Virus record (IMG/VR): IMGVR_UViG_2061766007_000563
Direction: 5' to 3' (one strand)
DNA length: 55,963 nt
Source: an uncultured virus (IMG/VR IMGVR_UViG_2061766007_000563)
Taxonomy: Duplodnaviria > Heunggongvirae > Uroviricota > Caudoviricetes
The notes under the pieces were generated by a model. That model worked only from the letters and a program-made list of their open reading frames with translations. It did no database searches and was not told the DNA's origin. Of this stretch, positions 3,433 to 55,963 are shown piece by piece (the stretch's first letter is position 1; each line of letters opens with the position of its first letter). The translations under genes and the position numbers were made by a program.

Positions 3433-3960
3433 TTAATTATTTCTTATGATTCCTTTATTGTATAGGAACAACAGAAATGAATAAAGATGCTTGCATACTG
3501 TAGAATGCCTATCAGGATTNNNNNNNNNNCCTTATGATTCCTTTATTGTATAGGAATAACAGAAATGAATAAAGATGCTTGCATACTGTAGAATGCCTGT
3601 CAGGATTTCTTTCCTTGTTAGGTATATGCGCATAATTCGGTATAGGTTCTTGCTGGTTGCTGTTCTTTGTATTCGGGTGACTGGTATTGTATCTGTATGC
3701 GTTGCATGTACAATTTACCTTGCCAATGTTCTTAATCGTAAAAGGTATTTCGGTATCGTCGCGATGAAACGAAACGACCACATCATAATGCCTTCCAGGG
3801 TTCGTCTCAGATTGGACNNNNNNNNNNNNNNNNNATCGGCTTTCGCGTACGGAAATACTTTTCTGAAATTATCGATTAATTCTTGGAGAGTATATTGTTC
3901 GCATACCAATATTCCTTCGGTAATCAAATTCGCATAATTTTTAAATGAACCATATTTCAT
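3433..3960 (-). CDS. SWIM zinc-finger-like protein (broken by gaps)
   Basis: HYDVVVSF..VNCTCNAY..VCKHL (CxC..CxH); late promoter TATAAATA at 3965-3972 (-). Confidence 0.6.
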
Positions 3961-3979
3961 ACATTATTTATATCATGTA

Positions 3980-4300
3980 AACTTATACCACACAGTCAAA
4001 GGTTTCGGAAGAGACATCGAGCCTATACAGGATTAAGAGAAAAATCCAGATCTCGCTCCGGTTTCAACTCTCGGGACTTATCGATATGCTTACGGGCTGG
4101 TCATCCTGTACTCCGACTGTATCATACCGTGCCAATGGCGGCTTCGTGTATTAATTGTTAGATAATACGTCAGTGGCGGTTCAGCAACAGTTACTACCTG
4201 TTCAGTGTTAGAAAGTCACGCCTCGACTTTCGCTGGCTCGCCCTCTACCGACACCTCATTGGATTGAGCTTCGCTCCGAGGAACAAGACTTCTGAATGTC
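3980..4300 (-). ncRNA. Unassigned ~320-nt structured RNA
   Basis: GC-elevated stretch with no ORF in the track, behind a TTTACA-17-TAAATT promoter (4335-4307); several nested helices (see findings). Confidence 0.6.
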
Positions 4301-24547: not shown

Positions 24548-25123
24548 TTATTTATACTTGCTAAGATATATGCTAAAGATAGCCGGTGTAAATAAGCCAT
24601 TATACTTTTCAAACTCATTAAACATCAGGAAGCGTCTAAATGTAATGCTGTGAGTATTTATAAATTCGTCAAGTGTCTTGGAATCATTAACGTAATTTTG
24701 TATATACGGAGCATATTCGGTTTCGAGCTTTGCAATCGCGTTATTGAATTCTATGAGATTTTCGGTAATCGACGCGGATTTATCTTCGTTCCAAATCGGT
24801 TTTCCCTGCTCGTCCCTGTCGATATACTTGTAAAGAATATCCATTTTCTTTGAGTTGAGCTCTGCAATCTTCTTACGCGTATCTTCGCTCCTGCATTTAT
24901 TGAGTTCGATATCTATCTTCCGCTTGGCACTACTGATCATTTCATAATTGTCGATGAAGAGCACATGATGGTATACCGTAAATTCAGGACTGTTACAATT
25001 TATCATTTTTGTAAGGAAATCAAACATGGCTTGGATTTCGCTATATGTAAACTGTACATCAGGCCTGTAGTCCATGATACGTCTATAGTTCGGAGAACTG
25101 TTTAAAAAATTATCAACATTCAT
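24548..25123 (-). CDS. Hypothetical protein
   Basis: 191-aa ORF overlapping the upstream stop. Confidence 0.65.
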   Translation of the reverse strand: MNVDNFLNSSPNYRRIMDYRPDVQFTYSEIQAMFDFLTKMINCNSPEFTVYHHVLFIDNYEMISSAKRKIDIELNKCRSEDTRKKIAELNSKKMDILYKYIDRDEQGKPIWNEDKSASITENLIEFNNAIAKLETEYAPYIQNYVNDSKTLDEFINTHSITFRRFLMFNEFEKYNGLFTPAIFSIYLSKYK

Positions 25124-26006
25124 CTTTTACCCATTTTAATTCTAGTCTTCCAGCGCATGGCGTAAATGTCATTTCGCTGAACTTGACTTCGTTATTTATA
25201 CTATATAAATCTACCCTGACGAACTTGAAACCTTTGCATAGGTGTTCTACATACGGAATCATTCGGTTCAATATTTCACGTTCCTTGTTAAACATCACCT
25301 TGAAGTTCAACGGCTTCGTACCGATATACCATTCTGGCGGGTTTCCATCCCTGTCATACCACGAAAGATATTGCATAAGGTTCTTCTTTAACTTTATGGC
25401 ACGGCAGATATTCACGATTTCGCCGTTTTCACACCAGAATTCCCAGTTGAGCAGTTCGCCGAGATCGGGCTGGATGACGATACCCGGCTTGATTGCCTCA
25501 TATTGCCATTCATAACCGCTTATGTACGCATAATTGAGGTTGCACCATTCATGGGTCTTCCTGATTAGGTATTCCGGATTGAACGAGTCCTCTTTCCTGA
25601 ACTTCATATTCCATCCGGAGCCATGGTTGCACCTTAGGATATAATTCTTGTTTTTTGATAGATGCCATTCGTAGTTATGCTCAGTAAGGTAGTTTCTGTC
25701 TACGAAATCCGGCTCGATTATAAGTTCGTCCAGTCCGTCAGCCCTGAGCATTTCTAGCGCAGTAATCTTGTCCGACCAGTCCTGCTTTATCGGTTCCCTG
25801 TCGTAGATTTTATAGTAGCCTATGCGGTCTACGATATTTTGTGGGTTATCGAGATTTATGCCCGGGACGTTCTTTTCCAGCCAATTTCTGGCGAATTGCA
25901 CCTTGTCGGCGCAAAAACGGCAAATATTATATTCTGTCTGATGTTGCCCGGCATAAAACTGGCGTTTATATTCTTCCAGCGGTAATGGTTTTTCAAATTC
26001 TATCAT
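25113..26006 (-). CDS. TupA-like ATP-grasp protein
   Basis: SDKI, CNHGSGWN, EWQY..IKP, FVRVDLY, FSEMTFTPCAG. Confidence 0.85.
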   Translation of the reverse strand: MIEFEKPLPLEEYKRQFYAGQHQTEYNICRFCADKVQFARNWLEKNVPGINLDNPQNIVDRIGYYKIYDREPIKQDWSDKITALEMLRADGLDELIIEPDFVDRNYLTEHNYEWHLSKNKNYILRCNHGSGWNMKFRKEDSFNPEYLIRKTHEWCNLNYAYISGYEWQYEAIKPGIVIQPDLGELLNWEFWCENGEIVNICRAIKLKKNLMQYLSWYDRDGNPPEWYIGTKPLNFKVMFNKEREILNRMIPYVEHLCKGFKFVRVDLYSINNEVKFSEMTFTPCAGRLELKWVKDEC

Positions 26007-42685: not shown

Positions 42686-42793
42686 TAATCTACCTTTATT
42701 TCAACAGACTTTTCAATGTATTCTACATTTGCTTTTTTATAAGCACGGTACTTTTTCCAGTAATCCTTTGTATCTTCAAACAANNNNNNNNNN

Positions 42794-43991
42794 GATAGTC
42801 TCAAACTTTTCTACTACCTTAAATTTCATTTCTTTTACAATAACATCTAACATTGCTGCTCTATTCAAAGCAGCGAATTGCTGAACAATAGCCATATCGT
42901 GCAGATAACCTTGCATGTGTTCGCCTGTAAGATAGGAAAGATTTTTCGGAACAGAAAAATGGTCATAGTCTTTCATGAGTTCCTTAATTTCAGCATCCGT
43001 CTTTCCTTGATTCTTATACTTAGCAATTTCAGCACCACGAATAGCTGTCAAATTCGCACAATCCTTGATAGCAAGATTTTGCCAGTATTCACAAGTAGCA
43101 ACACCCAAGTGGCGAGAACCAGAATGAATAACAATATAAAATGCACCTTCATCATCCTTATCGCATTCAATGAAGTGGTTACCCCCACCAAGTGAAGCAA
43201 TACTCAAAAGTTCTTCTCGTTTAACATCGGCAATAAGTTCTTCAAACTGTTCATCAAATTCATTAGCATAACGGTGACGGTTACTTCTATGTTCTTTACC
43301 AGACGGAATCTTTTCCTTAATGACCTTATCCAGTTTACCAAATTCGATAAACTTGTCCTTAAGCTTTGCAACCAGCATTCCACAGCCAATATCGACACCA
43401 ACAAGGTTAGGAACAACCTTATCCTTGATAGTCATAGTAGTGCCAACTGTGCAATCTTTACCTGCATGCACATCAGGCATAATGGCAACATTTACATCNN
43501 NNNNNNNNATGGATAACAATATAAAATGCACCTTCATCATCTTTATCGCATTCAATAAAATGATTGCCTCCGCCAAGTGAAGCAATACTTAGAAGTTCTT
43601 CACGTCTTACATCAGCAATAAGTTCTTCAAATTGTTCATCAAATTCATTAGCATAACGGTGACGATTTGCTCTATGTTCCTTACCAGACGGAATCTTTTC
43701 CTTAATGACCTTATCCAGTTTACCAAATTCGATAAACTTGTCCTTAAGCTTTGCAACCAGCATTCCACAGCCAATATCAACACCGACAAGGTTAGGAACA
43801 ACCTTGTTTTTAATAAGCATTGTAGTACCTACTGTACAGTCTTTCCCACAATGACAATCTGGCATTATTTTAATATTAGAATCTTTTGCCCATATTTGAC
43901 AAGTCATATTTAAGATTTGCCCATATGCAGCGCTATCTATATTATCTGTATATACGGTTGCTTTACCATATTTACCTTGTATTTCCATCAT
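42794..43991 (-). CDS. rtcB: RtcB-family RNA ligase (two overlapping haplotype fragments; C-terminus lost at gap)
   Basis: IMPDxHxG, VGVDIGCGM, SLGGGNHFIE, IHSGSRHLG, FAALNR. Confidence 0.95.
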
Positions 43992-47780: not shown

Positions 47781-48561
47781 ACGCTCACGAATATCGGCGC
47801 TAAGTTCCTTGCGTCCTTCAACAGCGGAAGAATGAGAAGCCCAGAACGAAATGAGGATAAGCAGGGTAACGAACGGACCCATGCAGATACCCATAGCGGC
47901 GAGCAAAACATTAATAGCATTATCGAGCTTGACACGCTTAAAGATTACACATGCGTTAAAGATACCGCACAGAATCCAAAGAATTGTACTGATTTCCATA
48001 TTAGTTTTCCTTTTCTGTATTGTTTAACTGTTCAGTTTCTTGAGTATCAACATATTGACACGTAATTCGATTAATCTTGACCTTAGACATAAAATATTCA
48101 GCCATGTCAAGAGTAAATTCTTCATAAACTTTCGGATTGTTATGACAGATAGATTCAAACAGTTCCTTATAGAGCTTCTGAATATCCTTTTCATAAACAT
48201 ATTCTACATTTGTAAGATACTTGATTGTCAGACCAACAGCGTCCTGTAATCTCATATCCGGAAAAGCATCGTTAATGGACGAATAAATCTTAAACAACTT
48301 CTGATGAATGTTGTCCATTTCCTTATATGCCTTTTTAAGGTAATGCTTGAGAGTGAACTTATAATTTACGGGAATGCTCATATTCTTCGTAAATACATAG
48401 CATTCGTAAGTAAGTTCATAATAATTGATACAGAATTTTGCAACCGACTGTTGGTCTACATAGCAGTTAATTTGCTGATATGGCGAATCGACACGTTCCT
48501 CAAAGGTAACGCGATCCTTACCGAAAACATCAGTACAAATCTTTTTAAAGTATGTTGCATT
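47781..48561 (-). other. Two partial hypothetical CDSs (membrane protein from 47999; 48001-48561 lacking its start)
   Basis: ORF track; both truncated by gaps. Confidence 0.5.
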
Positions 48562-48630
48562 NNNNNNNNNNTTGCAAAAAACAACAAAAAACAGGAAAAA
48601 TTTTTTATATATAATATAAAGGTAACGAAA

Positions 48631-48744
48631 ATGACTATGAACGTATTTGAACATGAATTTTTTGCAGCAGAACGTGCCGCAGCTGAATTTGCAGCTGCAG
48701 CGTTTGAAGTATTTGATTCAAATACAGTGCATAGGATCAGGTAG
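48631..48744 (+). CDS. Putative attenuator leader peptide (Phe/Glu/Ala-rich, 37 aa)
   Basis: MTMNVFEHEFFAAERAAAEFAAAAFEVFDSNTVHRIR; TATAAT at 48610 and AAGGT SD upstream. Confidence 0.75.
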   Translation: MTMNVFEHEFFAAERAAAEFAAAAFEVFDSNTVHRIR

Positions 48745-48769
48745 TTAACCGATTAGAGTTTTAAAAACG

Positions 48770-48802
48770 GTTCCTGTGCACAAGCGCAGGAACTTTTCTT
48801 TT
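48770..48802 (+). terminator. Attenuator terminator, mutually exclusive with the antiterminator pairing 48727-48736:48772-48781
   Basis: GTTCCTGTGC-ACAA-GCGCAGGAAC-TTTTCTTTT. Confidence 0.85.
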
Positions 48803-48806
48803 ATAT

Positions 48807-48879
48807 GCCGCTCTAGCAAAGATGGTCTATGCATGGGACTGAAAATCCTGGGATTCCCGATCGTTACGGGAGGGCGGCA
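48807..48879 (+). tRNA. tRNA-Phe(GAA)
   Basis: Cloverleaf GCCGCTC/GGGCGGC, anticodon loop CTGAAAA, atypical T loop ATCGTTA. Confidence 0.85.
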
Positions 48880-48886
48880 CTAATAT

Positions 48887-48959
48887 GGTTCTATCGGCTA
48901 GTGGTCAAGGCCACTTGGTTCTCAGCCAAGTTACTACAGTTCGAATCTGTATAGGACTA
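48887..48959 (+). tRNA. tRNA-Glu(CTC)
   Basis: CTTGG-TTCTCAG-CCAAG anticodon arm; TTCGAAT T loop. Confidence 0.85.
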
Positions 48960-48969
48960 CTAAAATTAT

Positions 48970-49042
48970 GGCGACGTAGAATAACGGCTTAGTTCACGGG
49001 ACCTTCAATCCTGGCATTCGGGTTCGATTCCCGACGCCGCTA
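48970..49042 (+). tRNA. tRNA-Glu(TTC), atypical C33
   Basis: CGGGA-CCTTCAA-TCCTG anticodon arm; TCGGG-TTCGATT-CCCGA T arm. Confidence 0.75.
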
Positions 49043-49051
49043 CTAAAATAT

Positions 49052-49097
49052 GCCGTTCAATCCAAATCTGGTGATTGGACCCGGTTGAAGCCCGGAG
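49052..49097 (+). tRNA. Partial tRNA, probably Phe(GAA), truncated by gap
   Basis: GCCGTTC, D arm TCCA/TGGA, CCGG-TTGAAGC-CCGG. Confidence 0.55.
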
Positions 49098-49686
49098 NNN
49101 NNNNNNNNNNNNNNNNNNNNNNNNNNNNNNNNNNNNNNNNNNNNNNNNNNNNNNNNNNNNNNNNNNNNNNNNNNNNNNNNNNNNNNNNNNNNNNNNNNNN
49201 NNNNNNNNNNNNNNNNNNNNNNNNNNNNNNNNNNNNNNNNNNNNNNNNNNNNNNNNNNNNNNNNNNNNNNNNNNNNNNNNNNNNNNNNNNNNNNNNNNNN
49301 NNNNNNNNNNNNNNNNNNNNNNNNNNNNNNNNNNNNNNNNNNNNNNNNNNNNNNNNNNNNNNNNNNNNNNNNNNNNNNNNNNNNNNNNNNNNNNNNNNNN
49401 NNNNNNNNNNNNNNNNNNNNNNNNNNNNNNNNNNNNNNNNNNNNNNNNNNNNNNNNNNNNNNNNNNNNNNNNNNNNNNNNNNNNNNNNNNNNNNNNNNNN
49501 NNNNNNNNNNNNNNNNNNNNNNNNNNNNNNNNNNNNNNNNNNNNNNNNNNNNNNNNNNNNNNNNNNNNNNNNNNNNNNNNNNNNNNNNNNNNNNNNNNNN
49601 NNNNNNNNNNNNNNNNNNNNNNNNNNNNNNNNNNNNNNNNNNNNNNNNNNNNNNNNNNNNNNNNNNNNNNNNNNNNNNNNNNNNNN

Positions 49687-49756
49687 GGAAATAGGAACGT
49701 TATATGCATTTCTACGAAACGTAAATACCGTTGCTCTACCACTGAGCTACTTCCCC
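49687..49756 (-). ncRNA. tRNA-like RNA 1 (5' half only), anticodon region replaced by motif insert
   Basis: GGGGAAG-TA-GCTCAGTGGTAGAGC then an insert with GCA-TATAAC-GTTCCTAT. Confidence 0.65.
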
Positions 49757-49761
49757 GAGTG

Positions 49762-49828
49762 GTTAACGCGAAATGTATGAACTCATCTAAAAAATAATGC
49801 TTTTGATAGGAACATTCTTTGCGTTAAC
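49762..49828 (-). ncRNA. Leader hairpin carrying the GCA-N6-GTTCCTAT motif (second copy 50006-50072)
   Basis: GTTAACGC/GCGTTAAC closing stem; starts right after the promoter. Confidence 0.6.
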
Positions 49829-49835
49829 GATGTTA

Positions 49836-49864
49836 AATATAGTAAAAAGTTGTTGGTTTGTCAA
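49836..49864 (-). promoter_or_regulatory. Sigma70-like promoter TTGACA-17-TATATT (second copy 50080-50108)
   Basis: Exact 17-nt spacing; the same -10 context recurs upstream of uvsW, DHH, TupA, NUDIX and other genes. Confidence 0.8.
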
Positions 49865-49886
49865 CCCCTTTTTAAAATATTTTTAG

Positions 49887-50001
49887 CCGGCGAGACTGGA
49901 TTCGAACCAATAACCCAAAGTACCCTTTAGATAGGAAGCATTGGTGCTGAAAGCGAATACTAAATCTTAAACTTTTGCTCTACCGATTGAGCTACTCGCC
50001 G
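49887..50001 (-). ncRNA. tRNA-like RNA 2 with a 49-nt insert replacing the anticodon loop
   Basis: Acceptor CGGCGAG/CTCGCCG, D arm GCTC/GAGC, stem AAAGT/ACTTT, T arm ATTGG-TTCGAAT-CCAGT. Confidence 0.75.
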
Positions 50002-50226
50002 AGATGTTAACGCGAAATGTATAAACTGATCGAAAATAATGTTTTTTTGATAGGAACATTCTTTGCGTTAACAGGGTTAAATATAGCAAATTGCTTTATG
50101 TTTGTCAACCTCTTAAAGCAATTATTTTTTCTTGTCAAAGAAANNNNNNNNNNGATAGGAACATTCTTTGCGTTAACAGGATTAAATATAGTAAATTACT
50201 TTATGTTTGTCAACCTCTTAAAGCAA

Positions 50227-50745
50227 TTATTTTTTCTTGTCAAAGAAAGAATAGATAGTGATTAAACTATGAAAATCTTCTTTAAATTGGTCAAGCTTAA
50301 GTTCTTGACCTTCTTGTTTAAGGGATTCAATAAAAGAATGACAATTATAACAAAATTTATTATCGTCAAATACTTTTATATTAGCAATAATATTATCAAC
50401 TGAAATGTCCTTATTATATTTTATTTTAAGGAACATTTGAATCATTGTTGCAAGTTCTTTAGTCTTTTCCATTGATGTCTTCCACGTCTCGTATCATATC
50501 TCTTTCCGGACTTTCTGAATTTTTATCCAAATAACGACCAGTAAGAATCATAGTATCATGGTCGGTAAATTCAAGATTTGGTTTACCTTCGGCCATATTC
50601 TCATAGTCCTCAGTAACAAGGTCTCTCCAAGAAGTATAACCAATTTGGTCCCAATTCCTATCGAAGAACTGGACTGTATTAGTTCCAACTTCCTTAGCGA
50701 CCACAGCACCGAACATTCCATCCTTTCGCATTATGGATAAACCAG
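50227..50745 (-). other. Small hypothetical CDSs (50227-50472; 50459-50745 partial)
   Basis: ORF track. Confidence 0.5.
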
Positions 50746-50756
50746 ANNNNNNNNNN

Positions 50757-51447
50757 ATAAAAGATCTCCATACGTATCAGAACTCATGGTATAACTTCCG
50801 CAACTGAATGCGTCGTTAATCTCGATAAGTGCTATCTCTCCGGTATCGAGAACACCGACATCCAAGCAATAGGCCTTGGGAGAATCGGTCCAGTCCTTAA
50901 CCATGGCGTCAACAGTGGCTTTGTCAATCATTATATTATTATCGCCAGAATAATATGCATAATCCCTGGCAACGCCGTTAACGACTGGAACACGATACTC
51001 AGATACGAACCTAACCGGCTCAGAGCAGATAATCTGAGTCCCGTCGGCAGCTCCCTCGGTCAAAAGCCACTCGTCCCTGGATTTCAAGACGAAACCGGTA
51101 AACCTCTTCAGCTTATCCTTCGGCTTGATGAAAACAGGATCCAAAAGATAATCGTTGAAAACCTTATCCTTCATATATCCGAGCTTTGTCTCCCAGATAC
51201 GACGATGAAGATACTTGTTCAACTGAACTGGATAATCCTCATGATGATAATCAATTTTCAACTTCTTAATGGCATTGAACATTACAGGAATCTCGCCAGC
51301 GATGAAATCGTCAGAAGTAAGCTTAAACCGGTTCTGAAGAAGATGTTTCTTGTAGAACGTAGTATAATTACCCTCGCCGAAGTAATCGGCGAGTTTACGC
51401 TCATCGCTTCCGAGCTTTCCCTTATCATTTAACTGCAAATAGTTCAT
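50757..51447 (-). CDS. ATP-grasp domain protein (DUF4343/R2K-like), 3' end lost at gap
   Basis: DYP..L.KYLHRRIW, VFIKP..KRFTG, SEYR, YCLDVG..LIEINDAFS. Confidence 0.85.
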
Positions 51448-53120
51448 TCTGCCTTTACATGTTTGAATCCCAAATTCATTGCTTCGGCTACGGTGATTTC
51501 GTCACCGGCCTTATAGGTTTTTCCGGTCTTTTCCTGAGGCTCGCCAGATTTGAACGTGGAAGCTGGAACAGGATTTCCCGGATGGAAAGTATACATTACG
51601 TCACCGATACCGTCTTCAGGTCCGATAATAAGAATAGTGAAGTCAACATCCTGACGCTTGTCGGTCTTCATACAGAGCGAAAGGAAACCGGTATTCTTAG
51701 GGTCACGGAAATGACATACTGCATCCTTATCGAAATCAGAAAGGTTCAGCATACCGTGATGTCCAGGAATATCAGTAGTGATTACCGCACTGCAACCCGG
51801 AGTGAGCACGCCAGTAGAATCTATCCACGGTGACCAATTCGCGCTCATCAGGGCCTTTTCCATGTCTTCGACTGACGTGTAGTCGGTCGTGGAACCGAGG
51901 CCGTTAGAGAGCCTTTGCTTCAGACATGAATTAAAGTAGTCCGGAAGCTTTTCCTTAGTCTTCTGGATAATATCATAGATTTGTTTGTTAAAGTAATTCA
52001 TACGTGAAACTTCTTCCATGCACTTGGATGTTTTTCGATTTGTTGAATAAGAAAACCGATATACTCGGCAACAGCATTCGAACGACTACCTGAATAATTC
52101 ATAATCACTTTATTATCAGGATTCATCAGTTCGGAAAGAATATTCATAGCTTCTTCGTCAGTCAAAGCCGGGAACATATTCTTGTCATTGTCAAATAGCA
52201 ACTTGAATTTTTCCTTACAAGCCTTGGCGGTCTCACGAACATGCTTTCGCTCTTCAAGCTTCTTGGCTACGACTATCGCGATACCAACGCCAGCCGCGAA
52301 ACCAAACAGGATAATGGCAATTTCAAGCAACCATTCAAGAGTAAATGTTAACATCTAGGAATATCCTTTTCACCCTGTAAACGTTGTTTTTCCTTTTCGA
52401 CTTCCTGCTTGAACGCCGGAGAATTAGAAATCATTTCGGCCTGCTTTGCAAGATCGAGCAAGTTTCCGAAAAGCATGTTTACCATCATTTTTTCTTCAAT
52501 AGAATCCGTATTGTCACGGAGGAGTTCAAGTCGCTTGGCTGTAGCTTTAAGTTCATCAATAGCAATCATTTTTAACCCAACAAGTTAAGTTTTTCAAGGA
52601 GACAGAGACGCGCTTCTTCACGAATTTCCTGAAGTTGTATTTCGTCAAGAATCTTCGGATTTTCATTCTTTTCACTGATAGTCATACGTTCCATAGAACA
52701 GATATGCTTTCCGTTTTCAGAAACGTCGATAGCCGTATAGCCGGACTGTTTCGGCATATTCAAACGGATATTACAGTCAATAGATACTTCAATTTCGTAC
52801 TTTACTGCGTCATCCTGATGATAGACATTCTTTACTTCCCTGATTTTTACAAGTCTGTAACCGGTATCACCTTCATAAGAATAACGGTCAGAGCCGTGGA
52901 GCTTTACCCACTTTCCTTCGTACTTATCCTTATACTTCTGGATAACCTTTTCGTAATATTCTTTGTTTTCGAGTTCTTTGAGCTTGGCGTTGCACTGGTC
53001 AAGCAAGGCACGAATCTGCTTAGCGTTCATACCGCTGACGTCGATGACTTTGAGGTCAGTATTAATCTTATGCTTCATAGCGAGGACTTTGGTGTCCGTT
53101 GTTTTAATCTTATTCTTCAT
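51444..53120 (-). other. Four hypothetical CDSs (51444-~52001, 51998-52354, 52348-52569, 52572-53120)
   Basis: Overlapping or abutting co-oriented ORFs behind a TTTACA..TATATT promoter near 53125-53155. Confidence 0.6.
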
Positions 53121-53214
53121 GCGCTAAATATAATAAAAAATACCCGTTTTGTAAACCGTTCTTTTTGCACGTATAATAGTGCGATTTTCATCCCGCCGAT
53201 TTTATAAATAAAAT

Positions 53215-54066
53215 ATGATAGAAAATAAAAACCAATGTCCATTTTGTAAAGAAATTTTTGAAAATGCCCGGAAAAAGGGTACGCATCAACGATTATGTAA
53301 ATTAAATCCAGAACATGATAAAATAATAGATAATTTACGAAAAGGTTTTAGAAAAATAAATGAAAGCCATAGATTAGAACGTAAAACATATAAATGTAAA
53401 TGTTTGAAATGCCAAAAAGAATATTTTGTTGTTTGTACAGAAAATGACTATAATAAAGGAAACTATAAAAAGTATTGTTGTAGAAGCTGTGCAAATTCAA
53501 GAGTAGTTACTGAAGAACAAAAACAACGTGTACATAATAAACTTGTAAAAGAAAAACCAACAGTCTATTGTAAAAATTGTGGTATTAAAATTTCTAATAG
53601 AAGTAAAAGTGGATATTGTAATAAATGTAATAATAAATTTAGAAAAATTAATAATAAAACCAGAGAAAAATTAAGACAGGCCGGTTTACATAGTTGTGAG
53701 GTACAATCAGAAATTAGACGCTCTAAAAATGAAATCGCATTTTATGAATTATGTAAAAATCATTTCTGTAATGTGAAACATAATGAACCGTTATTTAATG
53801 GCTGGGATGCGGATATTATTATTGAAGATTTAAAAATTGCGATTTTGTGGAATGGTATATGGCATTATAAAAAAATTAAAAATAAACATTCATTGGAACA
53901 AGTTCAAAGTAGAGATAAAATAAAAATAGAAGAAATTAAGAAATGCGGATATATACCTTATATAATAAAAGATCTTGGAAAATATAATTTAGAAAAAGTA
54001 AATACAGAATTTAAAAATTTCTTAGATTATATAAAATTAAATAAAAAAGACTATACATCAGTATAG
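53215..54066 (+). CDS. Zinc-finger + PD-(D/E)xK (Vsr/DUF559-like) putative homing endonuclease
   Basis: Multiple CxxC, CCRSCAN; SKNE..WDADII..IAILWNGIWHY..RDKIK; very AT-rich, opposite strand to neighbours, late promoter. Confidence 0.8.
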   Translation: MIENKNQCPFCKEIFENARKKGTHQRLCKLNPEHDKIIDNLRKGFRKINESHRLERKTYKCKCLKCQKEYFVVCTENDYNKGNYKKYCCRSCANSRVVTEEQKQRVHNKLVKEKPTVYCKNCGIKISNRSKSGYCNKCNNKFRKINNKTREKLRQAGLHSCEVQSEIRRSKNEIAFYELCKNHFCNVKHNEPLFNGWDADIIIEDLKIAILWNGIWHYKKIKNKHSLEQVQSRDKIKIEEIKKCGYIPYIIKDLGKYNLEKVNTEFKNFLDYIKLNKKDYTSV

Positions 54067-54081
54067 TCTTTTATAAAAGGC

Positions 54082-54197
54082 GGCTGGAAAGTTGGATTCG
54101 AACCAACGACCCGCTGGTTATAAGCCATTAATAGGAACTACCTATGCCATGGGCGGGTGGTAAAGTAAGCTGCTCTACCACTGAGCTATTTCCAGCC
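54082..54197 (-). ncRNA. tRNA-like RNA 3 with motif insert replacing the anticodon loop
   Basis: GGCTGGAAA/TTTCCAGCC acceptor, GCTCAGTGGTAGAGC D arm, GTTGG-TTCGAAT-CCAAC T arm, insert with GCA-TAGGTA-GTTCCTAT. Confidence 0.75.
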
Positions 54198-54209
54198 ATA
54201 AACTTAAAA

Positions 54210-54508
54210 GTGTCCGGTGAGATTCACACACCTTTATAACGAACTCTGACACGAAGCCCGTGGCGGTCACGTGACAACTACTACGCCAATAGCCGGTCGG
54301 TCTATGCGCGCCGACAACGCCACACGCTCGAGAATGCAAATTTGCGCAACGCACTCTCTTTTATAGCTGAATGACTACATGCGTATGGATTTTTAAATCC
54401 AAAAATAGAGGAACCACAAACAAACCTCCCTGGCAGACCCGTCGTATAACCGCTCTTGTCAGTTCTGCTTTCAGCCACCTGTACACCAACGAGGCAGTGG
54501 CCATACAC
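54210..54508 (-). ncRNA. Unassigned ~300-nt structured RNA with a tRNA/tmRNA-like closing domain
   Basis: GTGTATG/CGGACAC ends, T-arm-like GGTG-TGTGAATCT-CACC, long-range GAACTGACA/TGTCAGAGTTC. Confidence 0.5.
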
Positions 54509-54520
54509 GTTTTTTCAAAA

Positions 54521-54637
54521 GCCGGCGAGAAGTAAAACCAATAAGAACGTTAAATGTTAAATAGGAACTTCTTATGCCGTAAATTCTAAGAGGTGCGACT
54601 CTAATGGCTCCAGTCCGGAATGAAACCCGTTTAGCTA
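54521..54637 (-). ncRNA. Degenerate fourth motif-bearing element (5' end in gap)
   Basis: Begins TAGCT, contains GCA-TAAGAA-GTTCCTAT, ends CTCGCCGGC like RNA 2; no canonical T arm. Confidence 0.45.
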
Positions 54638-54722
54638 NNNNNNNNNNAAAGACTTATAAGGACGGTGACGAGATTACGGTCGCCGAAGCAATGAATTTAG
54701 GTTTTAAACACGTAAAAGCAGA

Positions 54723-55460
54723 ATGAACTACTTACAATTAAATGATAAGGGAAAGCTCGGGCATGATGAGCAGAAGCTCGCCGATTATTTCGGTGAGGGA
54801 AGATATACCACGTTCTATAAGAAGCATTTTCTTCAGAACCGGTTTCATCTCTATGCTGTTGATTTTATTGCCGGTGAAATTCCTGTCATGTTCAATGCTA
54901 TGAAGAAATGCAAGATTCTTTATAAGCATGACGATTATCCGGAGCCGTTACAGAAATATCTGAAACGCCGTATCTGGGAAGGAAGTCTTGGATATATGAA
55001 GGATAAGGCATTTAATGGCGAGCTTTCAAAATCTGTATTTATCAAGCCGAAAGATAAGCTCAAGAAGTTTACCGGTTTCGTATTGAATTCATTGGATGAT
55101 TGGTTTCTTACGGACGGTGCTTCTGACAGTACCAGAATTATTTGCTCGGATCCGGTAAAATGGGTTACTGAGTATCGTATTCCGGTTATTAACGGCGAGG
55201 CCAGGGACTATTGCAATTATTTCGGCGATCCTAATGTCATGGTAAATAAGTCGGTAGTGAACGACATGGTGAAAGCCTGGACGGATTCTCCTAAAGCTTA
55301 CTGCCTTGACGTAGGTGTTCTCGATAACGGTGAGACCGCTCTTATCGAGGTAAATGACGCATTCAGTTGCGGAAGCTATAATATGAGCAGCCAGACCTAT
55401 GGCGAGCTTCTTGTTACACGTTGGAACGAGTTGAAGAACTATGGACTTTTTGAGAGATAA
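54723..55460 (+). CDS. ATP-grasp domain protein (DUF4343/R2K-like), divergent allele of 50757-51447
   Basis: Same motifs and same upstream gene end (..EAMNLGFKHVKAE). Confidence 0.85.
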   Translation: MNYLQLNDKGKLGHDEQKLADYFGEGRYTTFYKKHFLQNRFHLYAVDFIAGEIPVMFNAMKKCKILYKHDDYPEPLQKYLKRRIWEGSLGYMKDKAFNGELSKSVFIKPKDKLKKFTGFVLNSLDDWFLTDGASDSTRIICSDPVKWVTEYRIPVINGEARDYCNYFGDPNVMVNKSVVNDMVKAWTDSPKAYCLDVGVLDNGETALIEVNDAFSCGSYNMSSQTYGELLVTRWNELKNYGLFER

Positions 55461-55963
55461 AATCGATAGTATGGCTGCATTAGCTGCGTTTAATTCTGAA
55501 CTGAAAATGGCTGAAGATTTTTTCGATTTACGTGGAATACCGCATCAGACAGATGGATTTTATAATGACCAGATTTATGGCGGTCCGGTTGTAAGCGGGG
55601 TAATCGAACATCCTATTTTCAGCGAGTTATGCTTTCGTAATGTTAGACTTCCTGGCATGAATATAATGATTCGTTATATTCCGCGTCATGGATATAAGTT
55701 TACGCATATCGGTGGATTGGATATGAGAAACAAACTTATATTATCTAACATATCGAAAGAATGTACTTATGTTTCNNNNNNNNNNCGCATCAGACAGATG
55801 GATTTTATAATGACCAGATTTATGGCGGTCCAGTTGTAAGCGGGGTAATTGAACATCCCATTTTTAGCGGGTTATTCTTTCGTAATACTAGACTTCCCGG
55901 CATGAATATAATGATTCGTTATATTCCGCGTCACGGGTATAAGTTTACGCATATCGGCGGATT
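55441..55963 (+). CDS. Hypothetical protein (partial, duplicated across a 10-N join)
   Basis: ORF track; sequence repeated after 55785. Confidence 0.5.

Follow-up and report, generated by a model that had tools for sequence, protein, structure and literature searches.

A structured RNA handle in and beside tRNA-shaped RNAs of a large rumen phage is tied to one unannotated protein family and points to a possible RNA-protein particle

The 55,963-nt stretch of DNA analysed here in full (the window; IMG/VR record IMGVR_UViG_2061766007_000563, from an uncultured Caudoviricetes virus) encodes on its minus strand three tRNA-shaped RNAs, A, B and C, each with a short insert in the anticodon arm, together with small RNA structures built on the same sequence motif, which are referred to below as handles. 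The window comes from a rumen phage with a very large, AT-rich genome. Genes in the window include those for a UvsW-type helicase, the anaerobic ribonucleotide reductase NrdD with its activase, the RNA ligase RtcB and NADAR. Exact matches to a 21-base piece of leader sequence were found in IMG/VR contigs of 291 and 411 kb. The 411-kb record (G002; 411,059 bases, 98% complete) was used as the reference relative, from which genome-wide counts were taken; another phage relative, G003, is 70% complete. The window sequence is interrupted by 29 scattered masked runs of N, each of 10-589 bases, which break several reading frames, that of RtcB among them, and make the sequence unreadable from the 3′ part of copy B down to position 49098. 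ARAGORN called only three ordinary tRNAs in the window (48807-49043), and 48 tRNA genes in the 400,000 of 411,059 bases of G002 that were scanned.

A preliminary description of the window had reported three minus-strand elements of tRNA shape with a common motif, and this was borne out both by Rfam matches to tRNA and by the motif counts given below. Copies A and C exceed the Rfam tRNA gathering score of 29 as cloverleaves with acceptor, D and T arms, and B scores low (Table 1) because its remainder is masked by N. In a relative, the full copy B (L002:3313-3424) matches tRNA at 52.1 bits, has the anticodon UCC and is interrupted by its insert at 29/30. Copy D, at L001:1580-1690, represents a fourth type. 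When Rfam was searched at the gathering threshold over the whole window and at E≤1 over 48500-55963, tRNA was the sole family on the three elements, and the match to some other described family that had been considered as an outcome was not obtained. ARAGORN calls none of A, B and C. Their acceptor stems differ from one another and CCA is not encoded, as stated earlier, but the missing CCA is not diagnostic because the ordinary tRNAs of G002 also lack an encoded CCA. Separately, the ordinary tRNA array of the relatives contains a tRNA-like gene (L002:4202-4274, with equivalents in L001, L003 and L004) to which ARAGORN assigns a two-base anticodon and Rfam 29.1 bits.

The inserts were located with a parser in which the acceptor, D and T arms are fixed and an excision is sought between position 27 and the variable loop that leaves a 5-bp stem, a 7-nt loop, U33 and a purine at position 37. 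For B and C one solution was returned (within one base for C): the 5′ strand of the anticodon stem is broken after position 29, resumes at position 30 beyond the insert and leads into a normal 7-nt loop. In A it is the loop that is interrupted, by 42 nt, and the anticodon stem is unbroken. At the gene level, none of the three has an uninterrupted 5-bp anticodon stem with a 7-nt loop. The earlier statement that the insert replaces the anticodon loop does not apply to B and C, and is correct for A only in the sense that the loop is split; the insert length, given as about 50 nt, is in fact 40-42 nt. Copy A looks Pro-like because it has C1-G72 and a 3′ exon ending in NGG followed by G37. Its first anticodon position is A in the window and U in the L001 relative.

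The motif GTTCCTAT occurs eight times in the window against 1.59 occurrences expected, a count reached by none of 100 shuffles, and six of the eight lie on the minus strand at 49.6-54.6 kb. A variant, CTTCCTAT, is found at 49931, and the inserts of A, B and C have (G/C)UUCCUAU in common. A longer form of the motif has 13 sites in G002, all on the strand of the tRNA genes, compared with two for the reversed control. The GTTCCTAT matches at 3462 and 22729 were considered as handles and rejected. A small hairpin repeat with UUCCUAU at 3440-3470 and 3530-3560 on the minus strand, where nearby sequence is partly masked, is likewise not a handle, having neither the GCA-N6 context nor a match to the handle model described below.

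At the motif sites of G002, the six bases 5′ of UCCUAU pair with six bases located 9-60 nt downstream, which are followed by C and then GC, and this GC pairs with the GC preceding a conserved A. The resulting structure, the plain handle, consists of a closing helix (NGC/GCN′), an internal loop with ANA facing one C, a 6-bp helix with GU at the end of its 5′ strand and AC at the start of its 3′ strand, the invariant UCCUAU and a variable part. Among 201 distinct motif contexts, a perfect 6/6 downstream partner with C-G-C was present in 41, against 3 when the 5′ strand was shuffled. Many different helix sequences were found with matching partners, the first and last base of the closing helix change together, and a 23-row alignment (A2) has two-sided changes at 5 of 9 pairs. 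The rows of A2 were picked for pairing, so that their percentage paired is not independent, and the shuffle comparison over the 201 contexts is the unbiased test. A covariance model of the plain handle (R1) gives four matches in the window: the leader handles of A and B and a stand-alone handle (Table 1), and a weak alternative pairing inside C (19.4 bits). The motif had earlier been noted in hairpins of the leaders and in a supposedly degenerate fourth tRNA element near 54561; both are plain handles, with R1 scores of 48-50 bits, and the latter is not a tRNA.

The inserts of the tRNA-shaped RNAs are the plain handle in circularly permuted form, closed by a small loop, and compensatory changes support both forms. 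In order, an insert contains U-rich bases, the 3′ helix strand, C, a 3-bp closing helix with a 3-7-nt loop, an A-rich internal loop, the 5′ strand, UCCUAU and 1-4 bases; in the insert of A the loop of the closing helix and the internal loop are each 3 nt long. This arrangement was assessed in an alignment of 26 tRNA-shaped RNAs (A3), for which the tRNA frame and the motif were the sole criteria of selection. In A3 the 6-bp helix is 89% paired, with double changes at 5 of 6 pairs, and the closing helix is 98.7% paired. Pairing in the tRNA helices is 97-100%, with 99.4% for the acceptor stem and 99.2% for the T arm. None of 500 shuffles matches the observed percentage paired, the number of double-change cells or the covariation score, and sliding the partners abolishes the signal. 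Single-sequence folds of A and of the element at 54524-54578 also recover the handle helices. In both topologies the attached RNA is on the UCCUAU side of the handle. Thus, the view that the inserts are dissimilar apart from the motif had to be given up, since the 26 aligned RNAs have one covarying secondary structure in common. In relatives, the motif, on whose conservation the preliminary description had made its proposal depend, is part of this covarying handle.

Relatives were collected by a scan for a T-loop together with the motif, which returned 28 loci in viral contigs, 110 in metagenome contigs and 31 in genome contigs. An earlier, looser T-loop pattern had been swamped by ordinary tRNAs with the motif in the acceptor stem, and a stricter one was adopted. 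The stricter scan gave 128 distinct hits: 19 are ordinary tRNAs with a chance motif upstream of position 27, 49 were found by the parser to be without an acceptor/D frame (some of these are plain handles), and 24 have the full tRNA frame, with lengths of 105-122 nt and inserts of 38-47 nt. The insert lies between positions 29 and 30 in 14 of the 24, whose anticodons are UCC, ACC, UAU, AUC, AUG and CUC. The other 10 carry it in the loop, where the exact junction cannot be fixed; five of these loop-type copies have a 3′ exon ending in NGG with G37, as in Pro tRNAs, and two start with C1-G72. No insert-free allele was seen in any relative examined.

The plain handles of relatives differ in what they carry. 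In some of them the variable part is short and unstructured. Others enclose a T arm and an acceptor stem of 7 bp that is closed by a loop, in many cases containing NCCA, or a D arm and an anticodon-like arm, and some hold a permuted tRNA in the order T arm, closed acceptor, D arm, as in YrlA, with a whole-model YrlA match of 37.6 bits. In G002, a plain handle at 154858-154969 (L360:14858-14969) surrounds a complete tRNA-like RNA with CCA and a GCAA tetraloop as the anticodon loop, which ARAGORN types as a tRNA of unknown type. The tRNA-like RNAs enclosed by plain handles cannot decode and are in keeping with tRNA mimicry. According to Chen et al. 2014 (PMC4201824), YrlA is a tRNA mimic and the YrlA of M. 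smegmatis has a 7-bp acceptor stem with NCCA in its closing loop; the paper also names a motif GNCGAAN0-1G. The Rfam YrlA family (RF02553) has a gathering score of 69, which the related handle RNAs do not reach (26.5-37.7 bits), and it has no match at E≤1 on the tRNA-shaped RNAs of the window. Maturation of the YrlA-like handle RNAs into canonical tRNAs by cutting and circularising, as from permuted tRNA genes, was also considered; it was rejected by eye, as the sides in L186 are too long for a 17-nt anticodon arm.

A handle lies directly upstream of a gene of one protein family in phage G002, in two Chryseobacterium genomes (C. ureilyticum and C. indologenes) and in a metagenome-assembled genome (MAG) of Kapaibacterium. 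The family, of about 600 amino acids (aa), is called here P0001 after its 587-aa member from Chryseobacterium ureilyticum. In this bacterium (strain DSM 18017) the locus reads, in order, a divergent WYL regulator, RtcB (475 aa), a tRNA-shaped RNA, three plain handles, the 587-aa protein and a small membrane protein. The order from the WYL regulator to the protein is shared by C. indologenes. Full-length protein was present in 4 of 301 sampled genomes of the Bacteroidota phylum. In all three further Bacteroidota genomes with the full-length protein, all eight R1 matches fall within a few hundred bases upstream of its gene, whereas R1 found no match in any of five genomes without the protein, nor in either of two with TerD-like partial matches only. 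Both further viral records with handles encode the protein, which adjoins the handles in one of them. Of 11 genomes or records with handles that were searched, 9 have the protein, G002 among them. A single-protein search for related loci gave six close viral loci only, and full-length look-alikes of P0001 occur in Campylobacter and Lactobacillus phages.

The P0001 family comprises 1,373 clusters at 50% identity (E≤0.001) and has no match in Pfam, NCBIfam, PHROGs or PADLOC. In the AlphaFold model of P0001 (mean pLDDT 94), Foldseek and VIA-align assign a fold to residues 381-540 only, namely that of TerD (Z 10.4 and 9.2), and the N-terminal 345 residues have no fold match above Z 5.6. Weak fold matches to clostridial toxins were discarded as noise (TM 0.05-0.15), and the ESM Atlas gave nothing above 0.84. 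The feature is real, widespread, structured and tied to one unannotated protein family.

The preliminary description's statement that RtcB is encoded near the window elements was confirmed by Pfam matches (Table 1), which fall on two open reading frames (ORFs) because of a 10-N masked run at 43499-43508. RtcB is present in all five records examined and adjoins the handle/protein locus in G004 and G034; only this adjacency carries weight, because RtcB is common in genomes generally. Around the protein gene of G002 (62015-75940; L373) lie a patatin-like gene and genes for an NAD-dependent DNA ligase, an NMN adenylyltransferase-Nudix fusion, a calcineurin-like phosphoesterase and a T4-type RNA ligase 1 (Rnl1).

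Table 1. Positions of the tRNA-shaped RNAs, handles and accompanying features in the window
Feature	Position	Strand	Basis
tRNA-shaped RNA A	49887-50001	-	Rfam tRNA (RF00005) 53.3 bits, 45-nt unaligned block in anticodon arm
Insert of A, 42 nt, circularly permuted handle	49927-49968	-	Sequence, minimum free energy fold, A3 covariation
tRNA-shaped RNA B, 5′ part only	49687-49756	-	Rfam tRNA 21.8 bits over 49692-49756
Insert of B, 40 nt, permuted handle, closing helix capped by GAAA loop	49689-49728	-	
tRNA-shaped RNA C, anticodon UAU	54083-54195	-	Rfam tRNA 46.8 bits, 52-nt unaligned block
Insert of C, 41 nt, permuted handle, boundary ambiguous by one base	54127-54167	-	
Plain handle, leader of B	49767-49823	-	R1 49.9 bits, E 1.6e-11
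Plain handle, leader of A	50011-50067	-	R1 48.2 bits, E 5.3e-11
Third leader handle, 5′ half, cut by masked run 50144-50153	50155-50172	-	Sequence, motif match, repeat family
Stand-alone handle	54524-54578	-	R1 50.0 bits, E 1.4e-11; handle structure also from fold
Promoter-like site, TTGACA-17 nt-TATATT, before leader handle of B	49836-49864	-	11/12 consensus positions; consensus match only
Promoter-like site before leader handle of A	50080-50108	-	11/12 consensus positions; consensus match only
Promoter-like site before partial third leader	50185-50213	-	11/12 consensus positions; consensus match only
Terminator-like hairpin directly after C	54045-54072	-	12-pair stem, then T run
RtcB RNA ligase gene	42779-43991	-	Pfam RtcB, E 3e-31 and 3e-18 on two ORFs
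cow-rumen-2 RNA (RF02947)	4069-4174	-	Full-length Rfam match, 94.7 bits vs gathering score 66

For each window copy, a consensus promoter of its own and a leader handle were recorded, and the same pair precedes the protein gene in G002. The 328 nt at 54196-54523 on the minus strand, between the stand-alone handle and copy C, are without a long ORF and are richer in G+C by eye; they have no Rfam match and their fold is no better than that of shuffles (z -0.69), and part of them is kept in G002. Two ATP-grasp genes were found on the minus strand, one of the R2K clade (50734-51447), less than 1 kb from the array of tRNA-shaped RNAs, and one TupA-like (25116-26006). A direct repeat of 178 nt (55541-55718 and 55786-55963) with 93% identity and a spacing of 245 nt reaches the end of the window.

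Based on the above results, we suggest a particle that resembles Ro60 with its Y RNA in design but is not homologous to it, its tRNA scaffolds being presented on a handle that docks to protein; we give this proposal an even chance. From the genomic linkage, we infer that the handle is the docking site of the P0001-family protein, with its novel N-terminal domain and its TerD-fold domain. The RNA on the UCCUAU side would be displayed on the protein; candidates for it are a tRNA-like minihelix and a YrlA-like permuted tRNA, and in the window it would be a whole tRNA body. The RNAs of the window would act unspliced, as tRNA mimics and not as decoding tRNAs. The surroundings, with RtcB, Rnl1 and a WYL regulator, suggest tRNA damage and repair as the setting, and a role in conflict is conceivable. 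Taken together, the handle and the protein point to an undescribed RNA-protein particle tied to tRNA repair. The preliminary description had proposed protein-binding tRNA scaffolds like Y RNA and tied to RtcB, and this part gains from the covarying handle, the single protein family and the bacterial RtcB/WYL operon. The link to Ro60 itself did not hold: no TROVE gene was found in G002 and G003, the handle is apparently not the Ro-binding module and the likely partner is a different, unannotated protein with a TerD-fold domain.

In favour of mimicry, the bacterial tRNA-shaped copies (Chryseobacterium, G034 and G198) give no canonical anticodon loop at any junction. Copies that have an anticodon in common differ in their first acceptor pairs and discriminators, the latter being A, C and C in the copies with UCC. 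In G002, the Gly and Pro tRNAs that lack an insert carry U73 and A73, respectively, as is canonical. Furthermore, A34, which is unusual for bacteria and phages, is frequent among the insert-bearing copies (ACC, AUC, AUG and AGG) and is found there even in two-codon boxes (AUC and AUG). Uneven acceptor and discriminator elements together with such A34 appear to be a weak fit to decoding tRNAs. Several observations weigh against the proposed particle. Its link between protein and handle appears from genomic context only, and the protein was found neither in G003, which is 70% complete, nor in the Thiodiazotropha MAG G007, nor in the 56-kb window itself. Insert-free tRNAs with A34 are present in G002 (Pro AGG and Thr AGU; 136279-136352 and 136530-136600), so that A34 may be the normal decoding style of the phage. 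All 14 copies with the insert at 29/30 keep the 5-bp stem, the 7-nt loop, U33 and purine 37, scoring 18-19 of 19, and most of their anticodons (UCC, ACC, UAU, AUC and AUG) read codons ending in A or U, as suits an AT-rich phage. Among the 48 ARAGORN genes of G002 there is no other Ile-type tRNA (GAU or UAU). Finally, a splicing endonuclease leaves the very ends on which RtcB acts as a ligase.

The last observations would be expected if the inserts were protein-dependent tRNA introns, an explanation that we regard as possible, though doubtful. The handle would then direct an endonuclease, the ~600-aa protein or a partner of it, cuts would flank the internal loop by UCCUAU, and RtcB would join the exons into working tRNAs, which in the lineage of the window would be Gly-UCC, Ile-UAU and Pro-NGG; the same cuts on the plain form would free the enclosed RNA. 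Perfect anticodon arms are indeed obtained in 14 of 24 copies, with six anticodons and several stem sequences, and pair 31:39 switches from A-U to G-C within one scaffold type (copies D and C). The five loop-type copies with a Pro-like 3′ exon, NGG with G37, and the C1-G72 of two copies point the same way. The tRNA-like RNA enclosed in G002 starts 4 nt after UCCUAU, and its CCA ends 6 nt before the 3′ helix strand, offsets that are the same as those of the inferred splice sites (1-4 nt and 4-7 nt). In addition, RtcB is encoded in the window and adjoins the locus in G004 and G034, and an insert-bearing copy is the sole tRNA with the anticodon UAU found in G002 in 400,000 bases scanned. However, perfect arms do not by themselves require splicing, because an insert at 29/30 leaves the 3′ stem strand continuous and the full anticodon stem can form in the unspliced RNA with the handle as a side branch. 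The offsets from handle to cut vary, and no simple ruler applies because the insert sits at two different tRNA positions. The bacterial copies give no canonical anticodon loop at any junction, and acceptor and discriminator identity elements seem not to be kept. As stated in the preliminary description, there is no clear bulge-helix-bulge: two 3-nt bulges with a 4-bp helix between them would be needed, and by eye no such pairing is possible at the boundaries of A, B, C and D. The EndA family (PF01974) was matched in none of five records and was detected in the four archaeal control genomes. In contigs from four RNA-library runs (X1, X2, X4 and X6), no joint skipping an insert was seen, and contigs that bridge the insert of A retain it (X2 record 7 and X4 record 16). 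This test is a weak one, since rare forms are dropped, mature tRNAs are not assembled and carry-over of DNA is possible; the data were Logan contigs, with shares of 0.05-0.13 for the RNA runs, and uncovered parts are uninformative. A 4339-nt "skip" in X2 was considered as splicing and rejected, because it corresponds to two adjacent tRNAs of a relative. A fuller version of the intron explanation is more tentative and rather unlikely: tRNA splicing in bacteria and large phages by a protein unrelated to EndA, in which the intronic handle would recruit the TerD-fold protein or a nuclease bound to it, both strands of the loop beside UCCUAU would be cut and RtcB would seal the exons. The phage would thereby withhold tRNAs for codons ending in A or U (Gly, Ile-AUA, Pro, Asp and His) until its own machinery is made, and plain handles cut in this way would set free tRNA-like RNAs or allow them to be circularised.

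Two further explanations were weighed against the docking of tRNA scaffolds on a protein. It is improbable, in our estimate, that the handle is a cis-acting signal, that is, a processing, stability or autoregulatory leader site bound by the protein only to control its operon, with the tRNA copies incidental to it. In the window, G002 and all bacterial loci examined, plain handles are positioned between a consensus promoter and a downstream gene or RNA (in G002, the protein gene), which would agree with such a signal, but neither the handles that enclose tRNA-like RNAs nor the precise and conserved site of the insert within the anticodon arms of the 26 aligned RNAs, whose cloverleaf helices are intact, would be accounted for. 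Very improbable is a reading of the elements as decaying tRNA pseudogenes split by small mobile DNA, or of the handle as a small self-cleaving ribozyme. The insert does have a fixed orientation and recurs in several tRNA genes, and small ribozymes leave ends that RtcB joins. Decay is at variance with the tRNA helices, which keep pairing through many compensatory changes (acceptor 99.4% and T arm 99.2% over 26 rows), and mobile insertion with the lack of an insert-free allele in the relatives examined. A ribozyme meets the difficulty that no Rfam ribozyme family was found at E≤1 in 48500-55963, and that a single ribozyme would cut once only.

If the proposed particle exists, it would be a second, independent solution to the design of Ro60 and Y RNA, made of tRNA-mimicking RNAs and a protein beside RNA ligases and spread through large gut and rumen phages and Bacteroidota. 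Cultivable Chryseobacterium strains are available in which its role in tRNA damage and in conflict between phage and host can be asked. If the inserts were introns, they would represent the first protein-dependent tRNA splicing in bacteria and phages. It should be noted that ARAGORN misses such genes, which would be absent from the tRNA counts of large phages. A full-text search of the literature gave no description of the feature; the supplementary tables of Chen et al. 2014, which could list related phage RNAs, were outside that search.

Compared with known introns, the inserts of the window resemble those of archaeal and eukaryal tRNAs (EndA/Sen, RtcB) in being short and located in the anticodon arm, in having exons that restore the arm and in the RtcB encoded nearby; position 29/30 is also a known site of non-canonical introns in archaea. 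They differ in that no bulge-helix-bulge was seen by eye and no EndA match was found in any of the five records. In addition, the insert is a conserved module of sequence and structure that is found outside tRNAs too, and its carriers are bacteria and phages. Group I introns of bacteria and phages likewise occur in the anticodon region of tRNA genes, but the inserts, at 38-47 nt, are far too small for a ribozyme core of ~200 nt or more (P3-P9), in agreement with the preliminary description, and no Rfam intron family was matched in the whole window at the gathering threshold or in 48500-55963 at E≤1.

The comparison with Ro60 and its Y RNAs is closer. Both systems join a helix module, a putative site of protein docking, to a tRNA-like domain with T and D arms, and both have several related small RNAs beside the protein gene and operon linkage with RtcB. 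They differ in the protein: the candidate partner has no TROVE match even at E≤10 and contains a TerD domain, where Ro60 has a vWA domain. TROVE (PF05731) gave no matches in G002 and G003 and was detected in the controls Deinococcus radiodurans and Bacteroides thetaiotaomicron. A TROVE-like match of 38 bits (G005:C104:40701-41087) is present in Chryseobacterium indologenes on the contig that carries the handle/protein locus, ~6 kb downstream of it, and a classical Ro-type gene may share an island with the handle locus there. With YrlA, some handle RNAs of relatives have in common the order of T arm, closed acceptor and D arm. The handle module differs from that of YrlA in sequence and shape (UCCUAU and the ANA/C loop), and the window's RNAs have a whole tRNA whose acceptor end is open, with a loop closing the module, which makes the arrangement a circular permutation of the YrlA layout.

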